From Promethearchaeati archaeon (GTDB lineage Archaea > Asgardarchaeota > Heimdallarchaeia > JABLTI01), in NCBI GenBank assembly GCA_013166835.1, contig JABLTI010000099.1:1-10522 (forward strand): a stretch of DNA of 10,522 bases, read 5' to 3'. The notes under the pieces are model-generated. The model saw only the letters and a list, made by a program, of their open reading frames with translations. It was not told the origin of the DNA and did no database searches. Shown one piece after another: positions 1,399 through 10,114 of this stretch; position 1 is the stretch's first letter; each line of letters begins with the position of its first letter. Position numbers and translations under genes: made by a program.

Positions 1399-2208
1399 TC
1401 ACCAAGTTGTGAATCTTTTGTATAATTTTGTTGGATATACGATAAGATAGGAAAAAGTAGCATCGGTTATGCCTTGAACGATATTCCATCCTGCGTATCC
1501 CCCACCAAAACTCAACAAAATTGTGGTCCAATCTGGATCAAAAACATTTACGAATTTCGGCGCCCAACCATTCAAATACATGAAAGCAGGGGCAAAAAGT
1601 AGAACATTCAAAAGAAACATTACAGTAAGTCGAGTTAGAATTGCTAGAACCATTAAGAAGACATAAACACCTATATGATTGAAGGTAGAAGATGAATATT
1701 CGAGTTTCTTAAAGAACTTATTTGATCGTTCTTTTCTTGAAACTACTTTTAGAACTATCCAAGGTATAACAAACATAATGGACGAAGCTATGAATTTAGG
1801 CCACATAGAAAGCCAACCAATACCCTGTTCACCAGGAAAAGCCATTATAGCTAAGCAACCCACAACTGCTGAAATTAAACCACTTCTTATACCAAAAACG
1901 AAAAAGGCTACAAGCATAGGGACAGCCATTATATCTAACCAAGTCATTCCAGGTGCAAAGGTAGGCCCCCAAAAGATGGATTCTAAAGTTGCATCCCAAA
2001 CAAAACCTATAAGTGCACTAAGACCACCAAGAATTGCTCCTGCAGCAATTTCTATGGTAATTGTTCTCCCTTTGTGTTCTTTCATTTCTGGTAAATGCTC
2101 TACAGTATGAAGATCGTGAACATCTTCTTTATTGATATTCTCTTTAGATTTTTCAGAGCATTCTTCTTTCTTTTGAAGATCCGTTTTTTCAGTAAATGTG
2201 GAACCCAC
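1399..2208 (-). CDS. ECF transporter S component (RibU/PanT-like vitamin-binding membrane protein)
   Basis: About six hydrophobic segments. EIAAGAILGGLS followed by WLDIMAVPMLVAFFVFGIRSG is typical of S components. GTG start is preceded by an SD-like GGGTGA. The first ~48 aa form a charged extension. Confidence 0.8.
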   Translation of the reverse strand: MGSTFTEKTDLQKKEECSEKSKENINKEDVHDLHTVEHLPEMKEHKGRTITIEIAAGAILGGLSALIGFVWDATLESIFWGPTFAPGMTWLDIMAVPMLVAFFVFGIRSGLISAVVGCLAIMAFPGEQGIGWLSMWPKFIASSIMFVIPWIVLKVVSRKERSNKFFKKLEYSSSTFNHIGVYVFLMVLAILTRLTVMFLLNVLLFAPAFMYLNGWAPKFVNVFDPDWTTILLSFGGGYAGWNIVQGITDATFSYLIVYPTKLYKRFTTW

Positions 2209-2299: not shown

Positions 2300-2335
2300 A
2301 TCCTCAAAGTTGATTAAGAAGGCAAGATATTGAGT

Positions 2336-2351
2336 AAAAATAAAAAATAAA
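2336..2351 (-). terminator. U-tract terminator candidate after rpl31e
   Basis: Minus strand TTTATTTTTTATTTTT, ~15 nt after the rpl31e stop. Confidence 0.45.
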
Positions 2352-2365
2352 GATGTAGAGGTGAA

Positions 2366-2740
2366 TTATTCATCCTCTTCTTCTTCAATATCTTCTTCGT
2401 CGGGTGGACGTAATTCGCCACGACCAGGTCTTCTTCTGACCTCTGGGACTCGTGCTTCAGCAGCAACTTTTCTTTCAACAAGGTAAAGTTCTACAATGCC
2501 TTCATCATCTTTAATGGCTCGCACACGAACCTTTCTCGGAGGTTTCTGAATACCTCGAGCCCAAATGAACTCATTTAGTTCATTATCAATTATGATATCT
2601 TCTGCCTTCATGTGCCTATAGATGAATTGCTTCATAATCCTAATGGCTCTTGGGGCTCTTTTTTGACGAGTAGATAATTTCAACTTCGGATAGAAGGGAA
2701 TTGTGTATATTCGTTCTTCTACCAGTTCATCTTCTGACAA
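2366..2740 (-). CDS. rpl31e: 50S ribosomal protein L31e (eL31) with a charged C-terminal extension
   Basis: ERIYTIP...KRAPRAIRIMKQFIYRHMK...IDNELNEFIWARGIQKPPRKVRVR signature; TTG start. Confidence 0.97.
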   Translation of the reverse strand: MSEDELVEERIYTIPFYPKLKLSTRQKRAPRAIRIMKQFIYRHMKAEDIIIDNELNEFIWARGIQKPPRKVRVRAIKDDEGIVELYLVERKVAAEARVPEVRRRPGRGELRPPDEEDIEEEEDE

Positions 2741-2816
2741 TTTTATTCACTCTCTTTGGTCGGTCTTTTCCTATTACCTATTTTAAATTTACTATTAGTT
2801 TTCATTCAGTTTTATA

Positions 2817-3062
2817 CTAAAAACTAACCTCATATTTCGCAAGGATAGTCTTAATATCACAAATTGTATTCATTGCAGTAATATCATCATCTGAAAGAAT
2901 AATATCGAAGTTTTGCTCTAGCTCGGAAATGATGACCAGGTGAGTCATGGAATCCCAAGCTTCATAATCTTTTCTTGATATTTCTTCTGTGAGTTCTTCT
3001 TTGGCGACGAGTAGTATTTTACTAACAATGTCTATGATTTTATCGTGGTTGTTTTCGCTCAA
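2817..3062 (-). CDS. Acyl carrier protein
   Basis: 81 aa and acidic, with WDSMTHLVIISELEQNFDI (Ser38 is the phosphopantetheine site). The TTG start overlaps the FkbH stop (TTGA). Confidence 0.92.
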   Translation of the reverse strand: MSENNHDKIIDIVSKILLVAKEELTEEISRKDYEAWDSMTHLVIISELEQNFDIILSDDDITAMNTICDIKTILAKYEVSF

Positions 3063-4915
3063 TCTTCTTTCACCGTCAGATATTTTGGAAAGTCTATGGG
3101 TTTCTTCAATTGTTTAAAGGACCATTTTATTGTTCCATCTGTTAATTCTTCTTCAACATCGAAGTTGTGATCTTTAAAGAAGTCTTTTGCCAGAGGATTC
3201 TTTTTAGTTGGTATATACTCAGCTTTTATTTCTTGTGCTTTCGCAGTTATTGCATCATTTATTATTTTCGTTAGAAATGCTGTTTCCACTTTTCTCCCAA
3301 TCACTCTACAACTCATTAGGAATGTGTCGATTTGCCATACCTTCTGATTTTCTTTGTTTACTACAGCAACCCCAACAATTCCTTCTTCTCCAAATTTGTC
3401 TTTTATCTCTAATGTGTAAATATTAAATTTCGCTGTCTTTTTATGCATCTCTACAACTTGGGTTTCAGTATAACGTCGGGTTGTTAAATTAAATTGATTT
3501 GTTCGATTTATTAGACTAGTTACTCTGGGCAGAGCAAATTTATCTGCTAGCTTGATGGTAGCAATGATTTCTAAAGTCTTGATAAACTCATCAATAGATT
3601 GTACTTTCTTCCGGATACCCTCTCTTTGTTTTCTGAAATAGTATTTTTCCCCTCGAGTCAAATCTTCCTTTGTTATTGCTAATGTGTTGAAATCATTTAA
3701 TTGCTCGAGAGTTTTCTTGTAAAGAGCAGGACTTTTCGGCAAATCAACCACTTTGACATCTGGTAATGCTTCTTTTACTCTTGCTCGTTCTACCGGATTA
3801 TCATCAAAGAAGACCATGCTGTCCAATCCAATATTGATTTCCTCAGCGAGCTCAATCATGTTTTGTACTTTATCATTCCAATTAATTCTGTGAGCAGCAA
3901 GATGTGTTTCTTTTATTTGCATGTAAGGATGTTTTTGAAAGACTTCTAAAGCATCTGCTTCGTTGTTTTTGCTGTTTACAGCTAAAATTATCCCTCTTTT
4001 GAAGAGACTTAATAGGGCTTTTTGAAAATCTACGAAATGGTTCCCAGGATAATTAATGTTAAGTTTGATCCCATCTAAACCGTCTTCTCCAATTATACCT
4101 CCCCATAAAGTGTTATCTAAATCTAGTACGATGCATTTCCTATTTCTTCCTTTCAAAGGTTTGATGTAACTCATCAAGCCATAGGAAACTGCTGGTAGGA
4201 ATTTCTCACTAAGTAAGAGTGACCCTCGGTAATACATTGGATAGTTGATGTATTCGTCTTTACCGAATCTGCTAGCGGTTTCATCAAAATCAAAAATGAA
4301 TATTGCACTATCATTTTGAAATTGAGTTTCTAACTTATCATTGATCATCCTGTAGAACCGTTTCAAACCAATTACTCTTTTTTTATCCAAAACTCCCATT
4401 GGTGAAAAGGTTGGTGAAATAAAATTACTAAAAATTATCATGGAATCTGTGCTTTCTGCTAATTTTGATAGAAGATCATTAAGTAATTCGACTATCCTGT
4501 CAATTTCCTCTACAATGATTTTTTCTTCGAGTCGAGTGAAATCAACAAGAAAATTCTCTTCTAATAAAGATTCGAGCTCAATGAAAAAGAATATTATTTC
4601 AGGTTTAAATTTATACAATTTACTTTTAACATCAATGATTTCTTCTTGAAATCTATTGAACGGTGCGACATATATTTCTGGGAAAAGTTCTTCCATTCTG
4701 CAATCAATATCAAGAAATGCTGCTAAGGGATCAATTGTGAAAGAACTTAGTAAAGCGATTTTGATTTTTTGATTTGCTGAGACATCTATTTTCGAGAAAT
4801 CGATCTTTTGTATCTGTTTGTATATTGACCAGTAATTAGAGTAGGATGGTTCCTCTTGAATTTTCTTTAGGAGTTCTTCTTGTTTTTCAAGTGGTGTTTT
4901 TTGAGGGGAATTCAT
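3059..4915 (-). CDS. fkbH: FkbH-like HAD-IIIC glyceryl-ACP synthase, long form with N-terminal extension
   Basis: KCIVLDLDNTLWGGIIGEDG, NSKN, FFDDNPVER, RTNQFNLT, DKFGEEGIVG and IDTFLMSCRV (conserved Cys). About 255 aa precede the HAD motif, including KIALLSSFTIDPL. Confidence 0.95.
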   Translation of the reverse strand: MNSPQKTPLEKQEELLKKIQEEPSYSNYWSIYKQIQKIDFSKIDVSANQKIKIALLSSFTIDPLAAFLDIDCRMEELFPEIYVAPFNRFQEEIIDVKSKLYKFKPEIIFFFIELESLLEENFLVDFTRLEEKIIVEEIDRIVELLNDLLSKLAESTDSMIIFSNFISPTFSPMGVLDKKRVIGLKRFYRMINDKLETQFQNDSAIFIFDFDETASRFGKDEYINYPMYYRGSLLLSEKFLPAVSYGLMSYIKPLKGRNRKCIVLDLDNTLWGGIIGEDGLDGIKLNINYPGNHFVDFQKALLSLFKRGIILAVNSKNNEADALEVFQKHPYMQIKETHLAAHRINWNDKVQNMIELAEEINIGLDSMVFFDDNPVERARVKEALPDVKVVDLPKSPALYKKTLEQLNDFNTLAITKEDLTRGEKYYFRKQREGIRKKVQSIDEFIKTLEIIATIKLADKFALPRVTSLINRTNQFNLTTRRYTETQVVEMHKKTAKFNIYTLEIKDKFGEEGIVGVAVVNKENQKVWQIDTFLMSCRVIGRKVETAFLTKIINDAITAKAQEIKAEYIPTKKNPLAKDFFKDHNFDVEEELTDGTIKWSFKQLKKPIDFPKYLTVKED

Positions 4916-5390
4916 TTTGAATCACTTCTTGAACTGCTTTATCTATATCATCCCAATTTTCATCTAATTTCTCTGCTTGATCTTGACTAATCACTAATGC
5001 CCAAGCAATCGCTGTTTTCTCAGTATGAGCAATACTAACTCTAATTGTTATTTTTTTCAATTGCTGACTGATTTCATCCAGTTTTTTATTGTTTTTGTCT
5101 TTAAAGTCTATTTTAGCAATTGGTTTTTTAGTTTTGTCATGTGATATAAAGACATGATATAATTCTATTTTTACAAATTCATTGATTGCTTTATAGACTG
5201 CTTCTTTGGCTGCGAATATTCCTGCAAAGTGTGGATGAGGATCTTTGTAGGATTGGCAGTATTTAGTTTCATAATCATTGAAGATTTTATTATAAAAACT
5301 TCGATGTTCGTCTATATTATACCGCTGGAATTTTTCTATTTCGATTATATCGATCCCAATTGACCAATTAGACAATGCTTTACCCTCCAA
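4887..5390 (-). CDS. acpS: Holo-ACP synthase (AcpS-type 4'-phosphopantetheinyl transferase)
   Basis: GIDIIE, FAGIFAAKEAVYKA and VSIAH motifs. Overlaps the fkbH start by 29 nt. Confidence 0.93.
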   Translation of the reverse strand: MEGKALSNWSIGIDIIEIEKFQRYNIDEHRSFYNKIFNDYETKYCQSYKDPHPHFAGIFAAKEAVYKAINEFVKIELYHVFISHDKTKKPIAKIDFKDKNNKKLDEISQQLKKITIRVSIAHTEKTAIAWALVISQDQAEKLDENWDDIDKAVQEVIQNEFPSKNTT

Positions 5391-5391
5391 T

Positions 5392-6255
5392 TTAAAATCG
5401 ACGTAAATAATCCCAAAAAGTGAAATTATCTATATCACCTGTTAATAAGCAACAAACTGGAGCATCATGTTTCCAGCTTTTGTGTTTTCGCCAATACTCT
5501 ACTGCTTCTGTTACAGATGGTACCCAAGCATTATGTTTATCCGCTTGCTCCAAGAATAATTTTAATCCATTTATGTATTCCCTTCGACCAATTCTTATTG
5601 GGTGCAAATCAAACATAACTACTCCATTTACTTCTTTTGCTTTTCTTAATTGAATTGTTAATGCTTTCGCAATCTGTTTATCAGAGAAATTGTATTTATC
5701 AATCATGAAGTCATCAGACCACTTGCATAGTGGAATACAAGTGTAAGTTGATTTCTTTCCATTTTGAAATTTGAAATTAAAAAAGTGATAAGTTTCCCGA
5801 TAAGATTGTTGGTAGCCTATTCCGATATCCCAAAGGAAATCAAATTTTTCCAACAGTCGTATTGTTGCTTCAGAATAATTGTTATATGGTGCTCGAAAAC
5901 CTTTGTAAGGTATCTTGTTTTTTTGAAATGCTTTTGTTGCTAAGTATAATTCTTGTTCAACTTGTTTTGGGGATAGGTGTTGATATCTCACGTGTTTATA
6001 ACCATGGATAGCAATTTCGTATGGATAGGATTTCAGAAATTCAGTATAATCCTGGTGTTTATCAGCAATAGATGCTACAAGAGGAAAAGTGAATCCAGCA
6101 TCGAACTCCTCTAATGAGGTAAACATTCGATCCAATAGTTTGTGGAAAGGTTGCATGTGAAAATAGAACATCCTGGCGGACTGTGCGAAGATACGACTTC
6201 CTCGTCTTTTTGCTAGATGTTTTATCCATGAAGTTAAACGACTAATTTTAACCAT
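5392..6255 (-). CDS. Polysaccharide deacetylase (CE4/NodB family), apparently circularly permuted
   Basis: EIAIHGYKH, GFRAPY and FDLHP motifs, with a motif-1-like LLTGDID at the C-terminus. ATG at 6255 (after an SD-like GGTGTGG) is preferred over TTG at 6267. Confidence 0.85.
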   Translation of the reverse strand: MVKISRLTSWIKHLAKRRGSRIFAQSARMFYFHMQPFHKLLDRMFTSLEEFDAGFTFPLVASIADKHQDYTEFLKSYPYEIAIHGYKHVRYQHLSPKQVEQELYLATKAFQKNKIPYKGFRAPYNNYSEATIRLLEKFDFLWDIGIGYQQSYRETYHFFNFKFQNGKKSTYTCIPLCKWSDDFMIDKYNFSDKQIAKALTIQLRKAKEVNGVVMFDLHPIRIGRREYINGLKLFLEQADKHNAWVPSVTEAVEYWRKHKSWKHDAPVCCLLTGDIDNFTFWDYLRRF

Positions 6256-6302
6256 AAACCACACCAAATATTGTTTTGTTATTTTATTATGGGAAATTAA
6301 TA

Positions 6303-6379
6303 CTTTATTAAACTATTTTTCGCTTAATACTTAGAGGTACTACACTTTATTGAACGTATTTTCATCAAAAGTTTTAATT
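6303..6379. promoter_or_regulatory. Divergent BRE/TATA candidates for the two arms of the cassette
   Basis: Minus strand CGAAAAATAGTTTAATAAAG (6303-6322); plus strand CAAAAGTTTTAATT (6366-6379). An SD-like GAGGT lies at 6418-6422. Confidence 0.45.
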
Positions 6380-6428
6380 GGTTATGTAAATATTTGATTA
6401 TAAAACGAGTCTCCTATGAGGTTTCACA

Positions 6429-6902
6429 ATGGGTAAGATTATTGGCAGAATTCTACGTATGATTGCTTGGAATGCTCCAATTTACCAATTCCGTGCGAGT
6501 TTATGGCGGAAATGTGGAGTGAAGATTGGTAAAAGGGTTTACGTTGGAAACCTAGTGTATTTTGATGGTGAATATCCCCACTTAATTACTTTGGAAGATG
6601 ACGTAAGTATTGGTCCTAGTGCATTGCTATTAGCTCATTCTGGTGGCAGTCCTTACCATTCGCAAACTGGAATTTTCAAGCAACTACCTAAACCCATTCT
6701 AATTAAGAGAGGTGCTTGGATTGGGTCAGGAGCAATAATACTCCCTGGCGTTACTATTGGTATTGGTTCAATCGTGTCAGCAGGAGCTGTTGTTAATAGG
6801 GATGTTCCCGATTTCAGTGTAGCAGTAGGTAATCCGGCTCGAGTGGTTTCTAAACTACCAAGACCAGGGGAAGCTGCAAAAGATACGGAGGAGAAAAAGT
6901 GA
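6429..6902 (+). CDS. Hexapeptide-repeat (left-handed beta-helix) acyltransferase, maltose/sugar acetyltransferase-like
   Basis: GVKIGKRVYVG...ITLEDDVSIGP...AH...IKRGAWIGSGAIILPGVTIGIGSIVSAGAVVNRDVPDFSVAVGNPARVV. Confidence 0.92.
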   Translation: MGKIIGRILRMIAWNAPIYQFRASLWRKCGVKIGKRVYVGNLVYFDGEYPHLITLEDDVSIGPSALLLAHSGGSPYHSQTGIFKQLPKPILIKRGAWIGSGAIILPGVTIGIGSIVSAGAVVNRDVPDFSVAVGNPARVVSKLPRPGEAAKDTEEKK

Positions 6903-7315
6903 AAATCAAAAATATTCATCATGTTGGTATAGCTGTTCCTTCTATAGAAGAAGCTCTAAAATTCCACCTAGAAGCTTTGGGGATGAAGCAAGTAACTGAT
7001 ATTGTTTTTGACGAATTACAGAAAGTAAAAGTTGTATTGTTGAGTCCAGAGGAAACAAATCATGAGAATTACAGCTATGTTGAGTTAGTGGAATCTGTAG
7101 GATCTTCACCTGTTGATCAAATACTGAAGCAAAGAAATCATCTTTATCATTATTGTATAGAAGTGTCAAACTTAGAAGAAACTCTTGAAAAAGTACGGAA
7201 AGAACATGCAATTATTGTTTTACCTCCTACACCTGCGAAACTTTTCAATGACAGAAGAATAGCTTTTATATGGACACCAGCTCAATACTTGCTAGAATTT
7301 TTGGAAAAGGGTTAA
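6899..7315 (+). CDS. VOC-superfamily protein, methylmalonyl-CoA epimerase-like
   Basis: IHHVGIAV, YVELVE, LYHYCIEV and LLEFLE give the H/E/H/E metal and catalytic pattern. GTGA overlap with the acyltransferase stop. Confidence 0.88.
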   Translation: MKIKNIHHVGIAVPSIEEALKFHLEALGMKQVTDIVFDELQKVKVVLLSPEETNHENYSYVELVESVGSSPVDQILKQRNHLYHYCIEVSNLEETLEKVRKEHAIIVLPPTPAKLFNDRRIAFIWTPAQYLLEFLEKG

Positions 7316-7418
7316 GATAAGCAATTGTGCTTTCCTAAAATCATCAGTTCGAATAAATAAAATAAGAAATAGAGCGAAGCCAATAAAGGCAATAACGATT
7401 CGATATAAGCTATCATGC

Positions 7419-7574
7419 TTAAACTTTCAAGTTGTTTCTTTGCCAATGTCTTCGTTTGGGATGTTGTCTAACATTTCCGCTAGTTTTCATTACAACCCAA
7501 GTTGGGACACCTCTAGCTCGTCTTGCTGCTTTTGCCATTCTAAGTTTTTTTGGATATGGTTTATTTCTAGCCAT
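7419..7574 (-). CDS. rpl39e: 50S ribosomal protein L39e (eL39); absent from the ORF track
   Basis: My translation: [51 protein letters not shown] (51 aa), with the VPxWVxxKT and RRHW signatures. Confidence 0.97.
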
Positions 7575-7589
7575 GTTGTTGTCCTTCTC

Positions 7590-7928
7590 TTACTTTCTTT
7601 TAAATTCAATGGTACTTTCTCTTTTACCCGATTGAAGCTTCTTTAAAATATCTATTAATTGTTCTTCTGTAATCGGACCTGGTAAATTACTCCTTGAAGC
7701 TATAGTAATCAACTGATTCTCTATGCTTTCCGCGAAATCCGGACGAGCCATACGAATGTTTGCTAATCGGTCTCTCGCTTTCGGAGTTAGGATCTGCCTT
7801 AGGATCATTGCTTTTTGGGCATCAATTTCTGCTTTTTTAGCAGCAACATCTGATTGAGCTTCTGCTTGCGATTGGATTTCAGCTTCTCTTTTTTTGCGCA
7901 ATTCTTCAAGCTCGCGATCTTCAGACAT
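7590..7928 (-). CDS. PDCD5/TFAR19-family DNA-binding protein (MTH1615-like)
   Basis: ELEELRKKR...ILRQILTPKARDRLANIRMARPDFAESIENQLI...ITEEQL. It sits in the usual position between rps19e and rpl39e. ATG at 7928 is preferred; the GTG at 7937 falls in the SD-like GTGAT. Confidence 0.95.
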   Translation of the reverse strand: MSEDRELEELRKKREAEIQSQAEAQSDVAAKKAEIDAQKAMILRQILTPKARDRLANIRMARPDFAESIENQLITIASRSNLPGPITEEQLIDILKKLQSGKRESTIEFKRK

Positions 7929-9178: not shown

Positions 9179-10114
9179 TTAATCTGCTTTTTGCTTCTTC
9201 TTTTTTCGATATTTCACGATTACTGGAATACTCACTGCAATAATTATTGTTGGAATAAGCACTGAAGAAACTATCAGTCCAATTGATGACAAGTAATCCT
9301 TATACGTACCAAGAGTATATCTTGGCAACCTGTAACCAACTAATTGATATTGATATTCCAGTGAAACTTTAACTGCTTGATCATTTAGAACACCCATAGT
9401 CCAACCTCGGAATCCAAAACCGGTAACAAGACCCGATACCTTATCAAAAGCAATATGGAAATTATTCCCAAACTCTACTTCTGCAAGATAATCAAAAGAA
9501 TACCCTATTGCAGGTCCATAAACACCACTTATCTCTCCCCCAAGCCAGCTTTCAAAATAAACAATATTATTTTTCTCTGAATATCTATAATTATATTCAA
9601 GTCCGGGATAATCTTGGGATACAGATTCGAAAGCTGAGAGGAAATCCTCTCCTAAATTCTCAAAGAATTCATGATTTTCAGCTGTAGGATTTATGTAGGG
9701 ATAGATGTTGAAATAAAGACCATTAGTGAAATTATGCATAGACCAAAGATAAACTGATCGATACACAATAATAGAGGTGTACCGCATGAAAAAGGGAACG
9801 AGGGTGGTATACCAATTCTCTAAATACCCAATAAAAAAAGATTCATTGCCGATTGTGAAATTCCCATTAATACCCCCTCCAACATAATTAACAGAGAAAT
9901 CTACTTTGGTTTTTGACGGATAATTAGTACCCTTAAAGCGAAATCCCTTTGCTGAGACAAAATTAGAACCAGATGCAAGATAGATTTTTGAATTCGTTAT
10001 TTTGTAAGTAGAGACATCACCAACGCTCAATTGAGAATGAACTGAGAAAGTTTCGGAAAAACAAAAAATACATAGAATGATTATTATTGATAGTAGTTTT
10101 ACTCTTCGCCTCAA
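9179..10114 (-). CDS. Secreted, C-terminally membrane-anchored surface protein (resembles the Heimdallarchaeia choice-of-anchor S family)
   Basis: Signal peptide MRRRVKLLSIIIILCIFCF; beta-rich body (VGDVSTYKI..., FDKVSGLVTG, VGYRLP); C-terminal TM helix plus KYRKKKKQK. The family assignment is from recalled resemblance only. Confidence 0.75.
   Translation of the reverse strand: MRRRVKLLSIIIILCIFCFSETFSVHSQLSVGDVSTYKITNSKIYLASGSNFVSAKGFRFKGTNYPSKTKVDFSVNYVGGGINGNFTIGNESFFIGYLENWYTTLVPFFMRYTSIIVYRSVYLWSMHNFTNGLYFNIYPYINPTAENHEFFENLGEDFLSAFESVSQDYPGLEYNYRYSEKNNIVYFESWLGGEISGVYGPAIGYSFDYLAEVEFGNNFHIAFDKVSGLVTGFGFRGWTMGVLNDQAVKVSLEYQYQLVGYRLPRYTLGTYKDYLSSIGLIVSSVLIPTIIIAVSIPVIVKYRKKKKQKAD

Follow-up and report, generated by a model that had tools for sequence, protein, structure and literature searches.

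Known FkbH domains use 1,3-bisphosphoglycerate. The Nod-factor pathway brings together NodB, a CE4 deacetylase, NodF, a dedicated acyl carrier protein (ACP), the N-acyltransferase NodA and NodL, an O-acetyltransferase with a left-handed β-helix (LbH). Complexes of LbH enzymes with ACP have been solved for the enzymes of lipid A synthesis. Archaea are generally considered to operate almost without acyl carrier proteins. The locus considered here is a six-gene cassette of a Heimdallarchaeia (Asgard) archaeon, encoding a dedicated ACP, an FkbH-type glyceryl transferase, an AcpS-type 4′-phosphopantetheinyl transferase (PPTase), a divergent CE4-fold protein, an LbH acyltransferase and a VOC-fold metalloenzyme. 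It lies on contig JABLTI010000099.1, and the window that was analysed is the whole of this 10,522-bp contig (C260), part of a genome bin of 3.56 Mb and 260 contigs with a completeness of 84.75% and a contamination of 6.79%. The six-gene set is genuine, and it forms a conserved and mobile unit. We consider it somewhat probable that glyceryl-ACP is handed to the LbH enzyme, which is of the WcaF/maltose-acetyltransferase type, and that this enzyme acts on a sugar prepared by the CE4-like enzyme.

Conservation and distribution of the cassette in archaea

Searches with the window proteins (tblastn) located 11 loci in the same class. The order CE4-AcpS-FkbH-ACP is kept in all 11 and the LbH gene is always adjacent, either divergent from CE4 or convergent after ACP. 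Thirty-one of 38 further Asgard loci have all five core genes (AcpS, FkbH, ACP, LbH and CE4), and the remaining seven are cut by contig ends. A wider scan of one genome per species, using profile hidden Markov models built from the archaeal orthologues, yielded 80 loci, and the six Asgard and Bathyarchaeia loci among them all contain the five core genes. The Bathyarchaeia, Loki-like and Thor loci have AcpS-FkbH-ACP facing LbH-CE4, and the core set is seen in three gene orders. Such a gene arrangement is far beyond chance. The first-pass annotation, made from this stretch of DNA, had treated the six genes as a self-contained cassette; the co-occurrence check shows a conserved unit for the core set (11/11 and 31/38 Asgard loci, and Bathyarchaeia), with VOC as an optional member found in 7 of the 11 same-class loci, in the one further same-class (g4) locus and in 8 of 30 uncut f31 loci.

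The novelty of the host had been overstated. FkbH orthologues (E ≤ 1e-100) are present in 53 of 400 Asgard genomes and also in Bathyarchaeia; by Asgard group they were found in 4/11 genomes of f1, 11/22 of f3, 1/12 of f4, 36/89 of the Thor type and 0/135 of f20, the largest family. LbH orthologues (E ≤ 1e-50, 54–100% identity) are likewise present in 53 of the 400, with edge-cut copies in three more (56). Both proteins occur together in 52 genomes. The single genome with FkbH only has its locus at a contig edge, and the four with LbH only retain a partial FkbH at the contig edge (three) or a partial ACP at the contig's first bases (one). Since LbH orthologues are found only with FkbH or with remnants of the cassette, the strict LbH orthologue is dedicated to it; second-tier LbH paralogues of 38–45% identity are present without FkbH. 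Across the 11 same-class loci LbH is also the best-conserved protein of the cassette, with 71–79% identity as against 57–60% for FkbH.

In a FkbH phylogeny of 89 sequences (FastTree), the proteins of 15 cassette-bearing archaea form a single clade with an SH-like support of 99, the nearest neighbours being one Nitrospinota, one Candidate Phyla Radiation (CPR) and two Clostridia loci. No donor can be named, because the tree is quick and unrooted. A portable ACP with its activating enzyme and a glycolysis-fed loader is thus common to Heimdall-, Thor- and Loki-type Asgard archaea and Bathyarchaeia. One Thor-type locus (G346, L165:1-3669) is an interrupted version of the cassette, with about 1.7 kb of unidentified sequence between ACP, at the contig start, and LbH-CE4 with VOC. 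A literature search of titles and abstracts, mostly outside subscription journals, found no paper on the cassette.

Insertion between the L39e and L31e genes

In this genus the cassette (2741–7418, 4.7 kb) is an insertion into the spacer between the genes for ribosomal proteins L39e and L31e. All four same-genus genomes that have no FkbH orthologue show the empty site, with L39e and L31e about 30–45 bp apart and the order S19e-PDCD5-L39e-L31e-ECF component-unknown-FtsJ, which matches the order in the window. All three other cassette-bearing genomes of the genus (G002, G003 and G007) carry the cassette at the identical site: G007 has the VOC-L39e junction, G002 the L31e-ACP junction and G003 both, on two contigs. 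No direct or inverted repeat brackets the insertion, and just short scattered matches were found within 2600–7600.

Public assemblies contain the same arrangement. A contig of run X2 covers 2300–7700 with one difference, both junctions are spanned by contigs of runs X1 and X4, and the L31e-ACP junction also by one of X8, which belongs to a fourth study; X1, X2 and X4 may derive from the source sample, and X8 covers 21 of 30 bins. No RNA data set is among the 22 public runs listed. The flanks are archaeal, including genes for a PDCD5-like DNA-binding protein, S19e and an FtsJ methyltransferase, and the nearest database proteins are source-labelled Heimdallarchaeota or Asgard. The composition is ordinary for the bin, with a tetranucleotide correlation of 0.985 (rank 156 of 260 contigs) and a bin-typical GC content, in agreement with the Asgard-like host first suspected. 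The contamination of the bin (6.79%) and the bacterial-looking families of FkbH, AcpS and ACP could be taken to mean that assembly or binning fused a bacterial fragment to archaeal ribosomal genes. This is hardly credible, as both junctions are found again in three other same-genus assemblies, one public contig runs over 2300–7700, junction-bridging contigs come from three or four studies (some possibly of the source sample), the composition agrees with the bin and the archaeal FkbH proteins form one well-supported clade. A chimeric assembly, against which the first-pass annotation had cautioned, is therefore very unlikely.

Other variation was observed around the site. In G007 a second mobile element has struck the same L31e-ACP junction, where the spacer (L024:2524-5527) contains a TnpB/IS605 OrfB-type protein of 397 aa and a LAGLIDADG-domain protein of 541 aa. 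In the window, positions 1399–2208 (minus strand) encode a 269-aa membrane protein resembling an ECF S component (PF12822, 25.8 bits, below the cut-off of 30.7). Its identity to the counterpart is 94% in G002, 39% in G007 and 37% in G003, while the neighbouring L31e is 98–99% identical in all three, as if one cassette had been exchanged for another at a constant position. A low-depth X8 contig (depth 2.44, shorter side 32 letters) joins 7306 to 7416, omitting 109 bases of the VOC-L39e spacer, and may come from a strain variant or a different organism.

Probable loading of the carrier protein

FkbH lies well above the cut-off of TIGR01686, reaching 305.5 bits against 146.65 (307.6 in a whole-genome search), and scores 43.8 with PF21211. 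The HAD motif DxD (D265, D267) and the triad S535-C536-R537 are invariant across 12 sequences; from work on OzmB, the C-terminal cysteine is presumably the acyl carrier. The closest solved relative is the uncharacterised BF1531 of Bacteroides fragilis (3SLR, E 1.1e-52). In the parts of PMC8949500 that deal with FkbH domains, D-1,3-bisphosphoglycerate is loaded and dephosphorylated to leave a glyceryl group on a carrier domain.

The ACP has its phosphopantetheine site at Ser38 in a W-D-S-M motif, with W36 and D37 invariant and S38 present in 12 of 13 orthologues. It is called divergent because PF00550 is barely passed (22.7 against 20.8 bits) and every NCBIfam ACP equivalog falls below its cut-off. 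AcpS passes PF01648 (50.3, cut-off 25) and TIGR00556 (55.6, cut-off 45.35) and misses the acpS equivalog TIGR00516 (47.6 against 59.8), making it an AcpS-like PPTase; the blocks IGxD..E and FA.KEA..KA are kept in 13 orthologues.

Archaea had been said at the outset generally to lack ACP and AcpS, and the cassette to bring its own AcpS for that reason. The cassette ACP and AcpS are the sole free-standing ones detected in this genome, which is about 85% complete, and AcpS adjoins FkbH in every uncut archaeal cassette locus, which fits that explanation; the two genes are also side by side in one Woesearchaeota and one CPR locus, as against 2 of 72 bacterial loci. The genome as a whole is not free of ACP, however, since it encodes a megasynthase of 3599 aa that contains two ACP domains and ends in a PPTase domain (L011:8451-19250, minus strand; G000 contig C123). 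A further ACP system, equipped with a PPTase of its own, is therefore present in this lineage. The other domains of the megasynthase are an enoyl-reductase-like NMO, KS, AT, a second KS-like region, KR and DH, and its gene adjoins a carboxyltransferase gene. Of 61 genomes in the class, 36 have an orthologue (f1 11/11, f2 17/18, f4 5/5, f3 0/22), and the Asgard polyketide synthase literature, as far as titles and abstracts go, does not obviously cover it.

A second, divergent FkbH paralogue of 616 aa is encoded elsewhere in the genome (L010:1924-3774, plus strand; G000 contig C104; TIGR01686, 260.6 bits) and is 36% identical to the cassette FkbH across residues 243–612. It is preceded by a 302-aa protein without a Pfam family and followed by a class I/II aminotransferase of the α-oxoamine-synthase type; PF00550 finds no ACP on contig C104. 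Similar second paralogues are present in six related genomes.

The LbH acyltransferase and its relation to VOC

Among NCBIfam families, LbH scores highest against WcaF (65.7 bits, cut-off 192), followed by heptaprenylglyceryl-phosphate O-acetyltransferase (residues 9–143, 60.1 bits, cut-off 300). The best Protein Data Bank (PDB) matches are SACOL2570 and galactoside/maltose acetyltransferase (GAT/MAT) structures (E 1e-20), and WlbB is among the best-matching types. Because all curated cut-offs are missed, LbH is considered a relative of the WcaF and maltose/galactoside O-acetyltransferases rather than a member. LpxA and LpxD had been cited as LbH enzymes with acyl-ACP donors, and a likeness to them is not seen: neither family is among the 25 NCBIfam families (of 40) or the 60 PDB sequences (of 84) listed. 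The catalytic-type His70 (A-H-S-G) is invariant in 15 sequences.

VOC has methylmalonyl-CoA epimerase TIGR03081 as its best NCBIfam match, at 55 bits, below the equivalog cut-off of 114.95, and H8, E62, H84 and E133 are conserved in 10 orthologues. An epimerase activity would be consistent with these features.

Alignment of 47 cassette LbH proteins, with VOC presence scored in 43 loci, shows a relation between the two proteins. Residue 47 of LbH is Gly in all 19 loci with VOC; in the 24 without it, Ser is found in 22 and Gly in 2. This position separates the two VOC states best among 157, and position 38 is second, with Tyr in 19/19 loci with VOC and, without VOC, Phe in 19 and Tyr in 5. The window LbH has Gly47 and Tyr38, the states seen when VOC is present. 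A hydroxyl that moves between two putative pocket positions with the gain or loss of VOC would be expected if the acyl group bound by LbH has its C2 hydroxyl inverted by VOC. The residue aligned with position 47 in the structure of E. coli galactoside acetyltransferase is one that we take to contact the acceptor.

Docking of the LbH trimer with the cassette ACP scored 0.59 and was classed as 'weak support', the best of three controls scoring 0.00. The runs share at least 94% of contacts, with a partner pLDDT of 82 or more. In the calibration set, 58 of 80 solved complexes passed the mark, as did 2 of 110 mismatched pairs. Resemblance to the solved lipid A LbH-ACP complexes may explain the pass.

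The CE4-like protein

The CE4-like protein passes its Pfam domain score, and its model matches CE4 structures with a Foldseek probability of 1.00 and TM-scores of 0.5–0.6. H88, H92, R125, P127, Y128, D185, D186, H222, D278 and D280 are invariant in 14 sequences, and motifs 2, 3 and 5 (H-x-x-x-H, R-x-P-Y and L-x-H) are intact in all of them. H37 is invariant where the canonical motif-1 Asp is expected, and the residue after it is variable. The most conserved block is a C-terminal L-L-T-G-D-I-D on a predicted strand (AlphaFold2 model, mean pLDDT 78.3), and its T-G-D-I-D may be a displaced motif 1 that supplies the Asp residues. The best Foldseek matches are 3rxz, PuuE (3cl6) and 3s6o, with TM-scores of about 0.6; the nearest folds include the uncharacterised 'polysaccharide deacetylases' 3rxz, 3s6o and 1z7a, the PuuE allantoinase and HP0310 of H. 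pylori. ArnD, an enzyme of lipid-linked sugars, stands at rank 25. The NodB score (TIGR04243) is 21.5 against an equivalog cut-off of 240.

Bacterial relatives

Neighbours within 6 kb were collected for 72 bacterial FkbH loci by greedy open reading frame (ORF) selection, so that all counts are lower bounds. ACP nearly always follows FkbH directly, here and in almost all of the 80 loci scanned. The neighbours include FabG-like short-chain dehydrogenase/reductases (SDRs) in at least 25 of the 72, MBOAT proteins in at least 17, LbH in at least 14, and MaoC dehydratases and VOC in at least 10 each, besides GNAT proteins and a second CE4 type. Just one of the 72 loci combines MBOAT with LbH, and one combines VOC with SDR. 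In the CPR locus, ACP is followed by genes for an AAC(3)-type N-acetyltransferase and a methyltransferase. Glycan genes are represented by GT4 glycosyltransferases, sugar epimerase/dehydratases, Asn-synthase-like amidotransferases, Bac_transf proteins and a WecA-type glycosyltransferase family 4 transferase. As had been anticipated, bacterial FkbH-ACP(-VOC) sets lie amid glycosyltransferase and sugar-nucleotide genes of polysaccharide loci. The picture is of a shared FkbH-ACP core that would feed alternative terminal transferases in glycan loci.

Proposed pathway and alternative explanations

In the proposed pathway AcpS, to judge by its family, would turn the apo-ACP of the cassette into holo-ACP. 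FkbH would dephosphorylate 1,3-bisphosphoglycerate on its HAD core, hold the glyceryl group on Cys536 and pass it to holo-ACP, yielding glyceryl-S-ACP, as its family membership implies. The steps of AcpS, FkbH and ACP are, on family grounds, very likely. VOC, where present, may alter the thioester-bound acyl group, most simply by inversion at C2. LbH would then take acyl-ACP rather than acetyl-CoA and acylate a sugar; transfer from ACP by LbH is moderately likely. The CE4-like enzyme would prepare the acceptor, most simply by removing an N-acetyl group, with the result that acetyl is swapped for glyceroyl, and this role, like a glycan target, is plausible. The donor, the acceptor and the order of the acyl swap are those that we infer. 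The N-termini of CE4 and LbH are basic and amphipathic, with a net charge of +8 in the first 35 residues and helical moments of about 1.5, and no transmembrane segment is seen; the favoured acceptor is therefore a sugar on the cytoplasmic side that is either lipid-linked (dolichol-type) or nucleotide-linked. The decorated sugar would end in a surface or N-linked glycan. AglB/STT3 adjoins the cassette in seven loci of one Heimdall-class genus (g4), where the neighbours are AglB and housekeeping genes. Together with the CE4 fold and the setting of the bacterial relatives, this single adjacency suggests a glycan target.

A bolder form of the proposal, which we put forward only tentatively and would sooner doubt than assert, is that archaea of several phyla possess a native, mobile system of carrier-protein glycan editing. 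The CE4-like enzyme would remove acetyl and an LbH enzyme retooled to acyl-ACP would install glycerate derived from glycolysis. An optional VOC epimerase would reverse the handedness of the acyl group, the LbH pocket (Gly47/Tyr38 or Ser47/Phe38) switching in step with it.

Several findings weigh against transfer of glyceryl from ACP to a deacetylated sugar. The closest relatives of LbH are all annotated as acetyltransferases of the acetyl-CoA type, mostly O-acetyltransferases, and because of this, and because no LpxA or LpxD is listed, ACP use and N-acylation have no support from the LbH sequence. Docking scores of 0.60 or less cover just 7 of the 80 solved complexes, yet include both mismatched pairs that passed. 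When the traits were mapped on the FkbH tree (41 rows, two duplicate loci removed), the link between residue 47 and VOC reduced to five independent contrasts, of which three agree, none opposes and two are unchanged (sign test p = 0.25); the link is real in the data and is based on about three events. In the CE4-like protein the Asp-Asp of motif 1 is not at its canonical place, TFDDGP aligning to F-H-x-x-P-F, and as its folds lie near the metal-independent PuuE and uncharacterised proteins, it may not be a de-N-acetylase. The ACP of one Loki-like 'Promethearchaeota' cassette (L047, 9819-10055, plus strand) has Ala for Ser (W-D-A-M), either a sequencing error or a dead carrier. The adjacency of AglB is limited to one genus, and in the present genome AglB is on another contig. 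Housekeeping genes surround the Thor and Loki-like cassettes, no neighbour is conserved across lineages, and in the window and the orthologous loci examined no glycosyltransferase or acceptor-pathway gene accompanies the cassette.

It would be somewhat unlikely for LbH to be an ordinary acetyl-CoA O-acetyltransferase working on the same product while another protein takes glyceryl from ACP, be it the CE4-fold enzyme, with transacylase or hydrolase activity, or the product of a gene outside the cassette. The annotation of its close relatives (WcaF, the maltose/galactoside O-acetyltransferases and WlbB) as acetyltransferases, the atypical motif 1 of the CE4-like protein and the weak docking pass all speak for such an arrangement. 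Nevertheless, LbH orthologues are confined to genomes that have FkbH or a remnant of the cassette, and the identity of residues 47 and 38 follows the presence of VOC, a surprising pattern if LbH had no contact with the acyl group on ACP. In addition, LbH and MBOAT are nearly exclusive in bacterial loci (both in 1/72) and no alternative transferase is conserved with the cassette. The acceptor might also be something other than a glycan, in that a membrane lipid or polyprenyl-glycerol intermediate is acylated or a small soluble metabolite is made. We rate this as unlikely, given that the bacterial FkbH-ACP relatives lie in polysaccharide loci, that the CE4 fold is typical of sugar de-N/O-acetylases and that AglB is adjacent in one genus. 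It would account for the second match of LbH to heptaprenylglyceryl-phosphate O-acetyltransferase (60.1 bits, far below the cut-off of 300), for a cassette that travels without a glycosyltransferase and for the membrane-seeking look of the CE4 and LbH N-termini; the geranylgeranyl-reductase-like and HMG-CoA-reductase N-domain genes near Loki-like and Thor cassettes point the same way, but are common to two related loci only.

It is decidedly improbable that something other than D-glyceryl is loaded by the FkbH homologue, or that the loaded group is converted before transfer, for example to a pyruvoyl or lactyl type. In bacteria the MaoC (10/72) and SDR (25/72) genes beside FkbH-ACP imply further processing, and VOC and SDR share a single locus, as if they were alternative tailoring routes. 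The archaeal cassette, in contrast, has no dehydratase or reductase, and the FkbH domains described in the relevant parts of PMC8949500 use 1,3-bisphosphoglycerate. VOC is moreover absent from 22 of 41 non-duplicate judgeable cassettes, so that unmodified glyceryl is the simplest product.

If glyceryl-ACP does serve the LbH enzyme, it would provide a new route by which surface or N-linked glycans of archaea are acylated, point to a biosynthetic source of the glyceroyl groups of sugars and show how a carrier protein can recruit an LbH enzyme of the acetyl-CoA type. Should the bolder form prove true, it would add an LbH enzyme using acyl-ACP outside lipid A synthesis and a dedicated archaeal ACP function unrelated to fatty-acid synthesis. 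The presence/absence polymorphism between L39e and L31e provides natural near-isogenic comparisons, and the switch at residue 47 is a handle for a biochemical test. The FkbH-ACP core with MBOAT in many bacteria suggests a wider family of glycan-acylation systems, on which no paper was found in titles and abstracts.

Gene organization of the window

The six ORFs and their families are as first annotated: the coordinates match and each protein scores above its Pfam family cut-off (Table 1). Coordinates and overlaps were computed from longest-ORF starts; recomputed in this way, neighbouring genes overlap by 4, 29 and 4 nt and are in one case 1 nt apart, which agrees with the first annotation. Alignments of orthologues indicate that the real starts of CE4 and AcpS may lie a few codons further in.

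Table 1. Features of the cassette and its flanks in the 10,522-bp window.
Feature	Coordinates	Strand	Remarks
ACP, dedicated acyl carrier protein	2817..3062	-	81 aa; PF00550 (PP-binding) 22.7 bits, cut-off 20.8
FkbH-type HAD-IIIC phosphatase/glyceryl transferase	3059..4915	-	618 aa; FkbH_N + HAD core + C-terminal Cys domain
AcpS-type 4′-phosphopantetheinyl transferase	4887..5390	-	167 aa; C-terminal extension of ~35 aa
CE4-fold deacetylase-like protein, divergent	5392..6267	-	291 aa; PF01522 (Polysacc_deac_1) 43.9, cut-off 23.1
Divergent intergenic region	6268..6428		161 bp, A+T-rich, separates the two arms; presumed promoter region
LbH acyltransferase	6429..6902	+	157 aa; PF00132 (Hexapep) 40.7, cut-off 27
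VOC/glyoxalase-fold metalloenzyme	6899..7315	+	138 aa; PF13669 (Glyoxalase_4) 56.1, cut-off 27
L31e ribosomal protein, insertion flank	2366..2740	-	PF01198 68 bits
L39e ribosomal protein, insertion flank	7419..7574	-	PF00832 60.3 bits
Left insertion junction	2741..2816		spacer, ACP stop to L31e start
Right insertion junction	7316..7418		spacer, VOC stop to L39e stop

The first-pass annotation had also noted that none of the six proteins has a clear membrane-spanning segment. In a Kyte-Doolittle scan with 19-residue windows, five of the six have no window reaching 1.6 or more, and the maximum of 1.95 in LbH, near residue 103, falls inside the hexapeptide-repeat region (Pfam Hexapep 91–124). In agreement with the same annotation, family scans found no polyketide synthase (PKS), nonribosomal peptide synthetase (NRPS), MBOAT or glycosyltransferase among the 15 ORFs scanned in the window, and neither an Rfam family nor a tRNA was detected in it. 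At 9179–10114 (minus strand) the window encodes a 311-aa protein without a Pfam family, which has a hydrophobic N-terminus and three N-x-S/T sequons, and in which a hydrophobic anchor near the C-terminus precedes a Lys-rich tail. It resembles a surface protein, and no connection to the cassette was found.

Comparison with known systems

With FkbH/OzmB-type loading, as in the methoxymalonyl-ACP, tetronate and NRPS systems, the cassette shares the HAD DxD, the C-terminal Cys motif and an adjacent small ACP. It differs in that no FkbK/I/G-type oxidase or methyltransferase, ketosynthase, PKS or NRPS is present in the window or beside the orthologous cassettes examined; instead, FkbH and ACP are accompanied by AcpS, an LbH transferase and a CE4-like enzyme, in an archaeal host. 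The bacterial FkbH-ACP modules, including that of BF1531, have the same long FkbH with FkbH_N and an ACP directly downstream, and in part share VOC (10/72) and LbH (14/72) with the cassette. Their FkbH is 30–43% identical to that of the window, and they mostly carry MBOAT (17/72) with or without SDR and MaoC, whereas AcpS and a cassette-type CE4 are each found in 2 of the 72.

The Nod-factor pathway resembles the cassette in its dedicated ACP, a CE4 enzyme that frees a GlcNAc-type amine, transfer from acyl-ACP and an LbH enzyme of the maltose/galactoside family. The cassette, however, has no NodA or NodE homologue, and its acyl source would be glycolysis rather than fatty-acid synthesis. In the LpxA/LpxC/LpxD system an LbH acyltransferase likewise uses acyl-ACP, and a deacetylation stands between acylations of a UDP-GlcNAc-type sugar; the cassette LbH is outside the LpxA/LpxD family, the deacetylase has a CE4 fold and is not LpxC, and the acyl group would be C3. 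The Dlt system (DltA/C/B/D) offers the likeness of a small dedicated carrier that delivers a small acyl group to a cell-surface polymer, and the MBOAT-containing bacterial and Woesearchaeota relatives resemble it. In contrast, the archaeal cassette has neither an MBOAT nor an adenylating ligase, FkbH would draw the acyl group from an intermediate of glycolysis, and its transfer probably takes place in the cytoplasm.

The loading of ACP by FkbH is thus of a known kind, here probably applied to glycan tailoring in an archaeal setting with its own AcpS. What is new is the exact placing of the cassette in the L39e-L31e spacer, which is unoccupied in sister species, the count of LbH and FkbH co-occurrence and the count of independent contrasts for residue 47.

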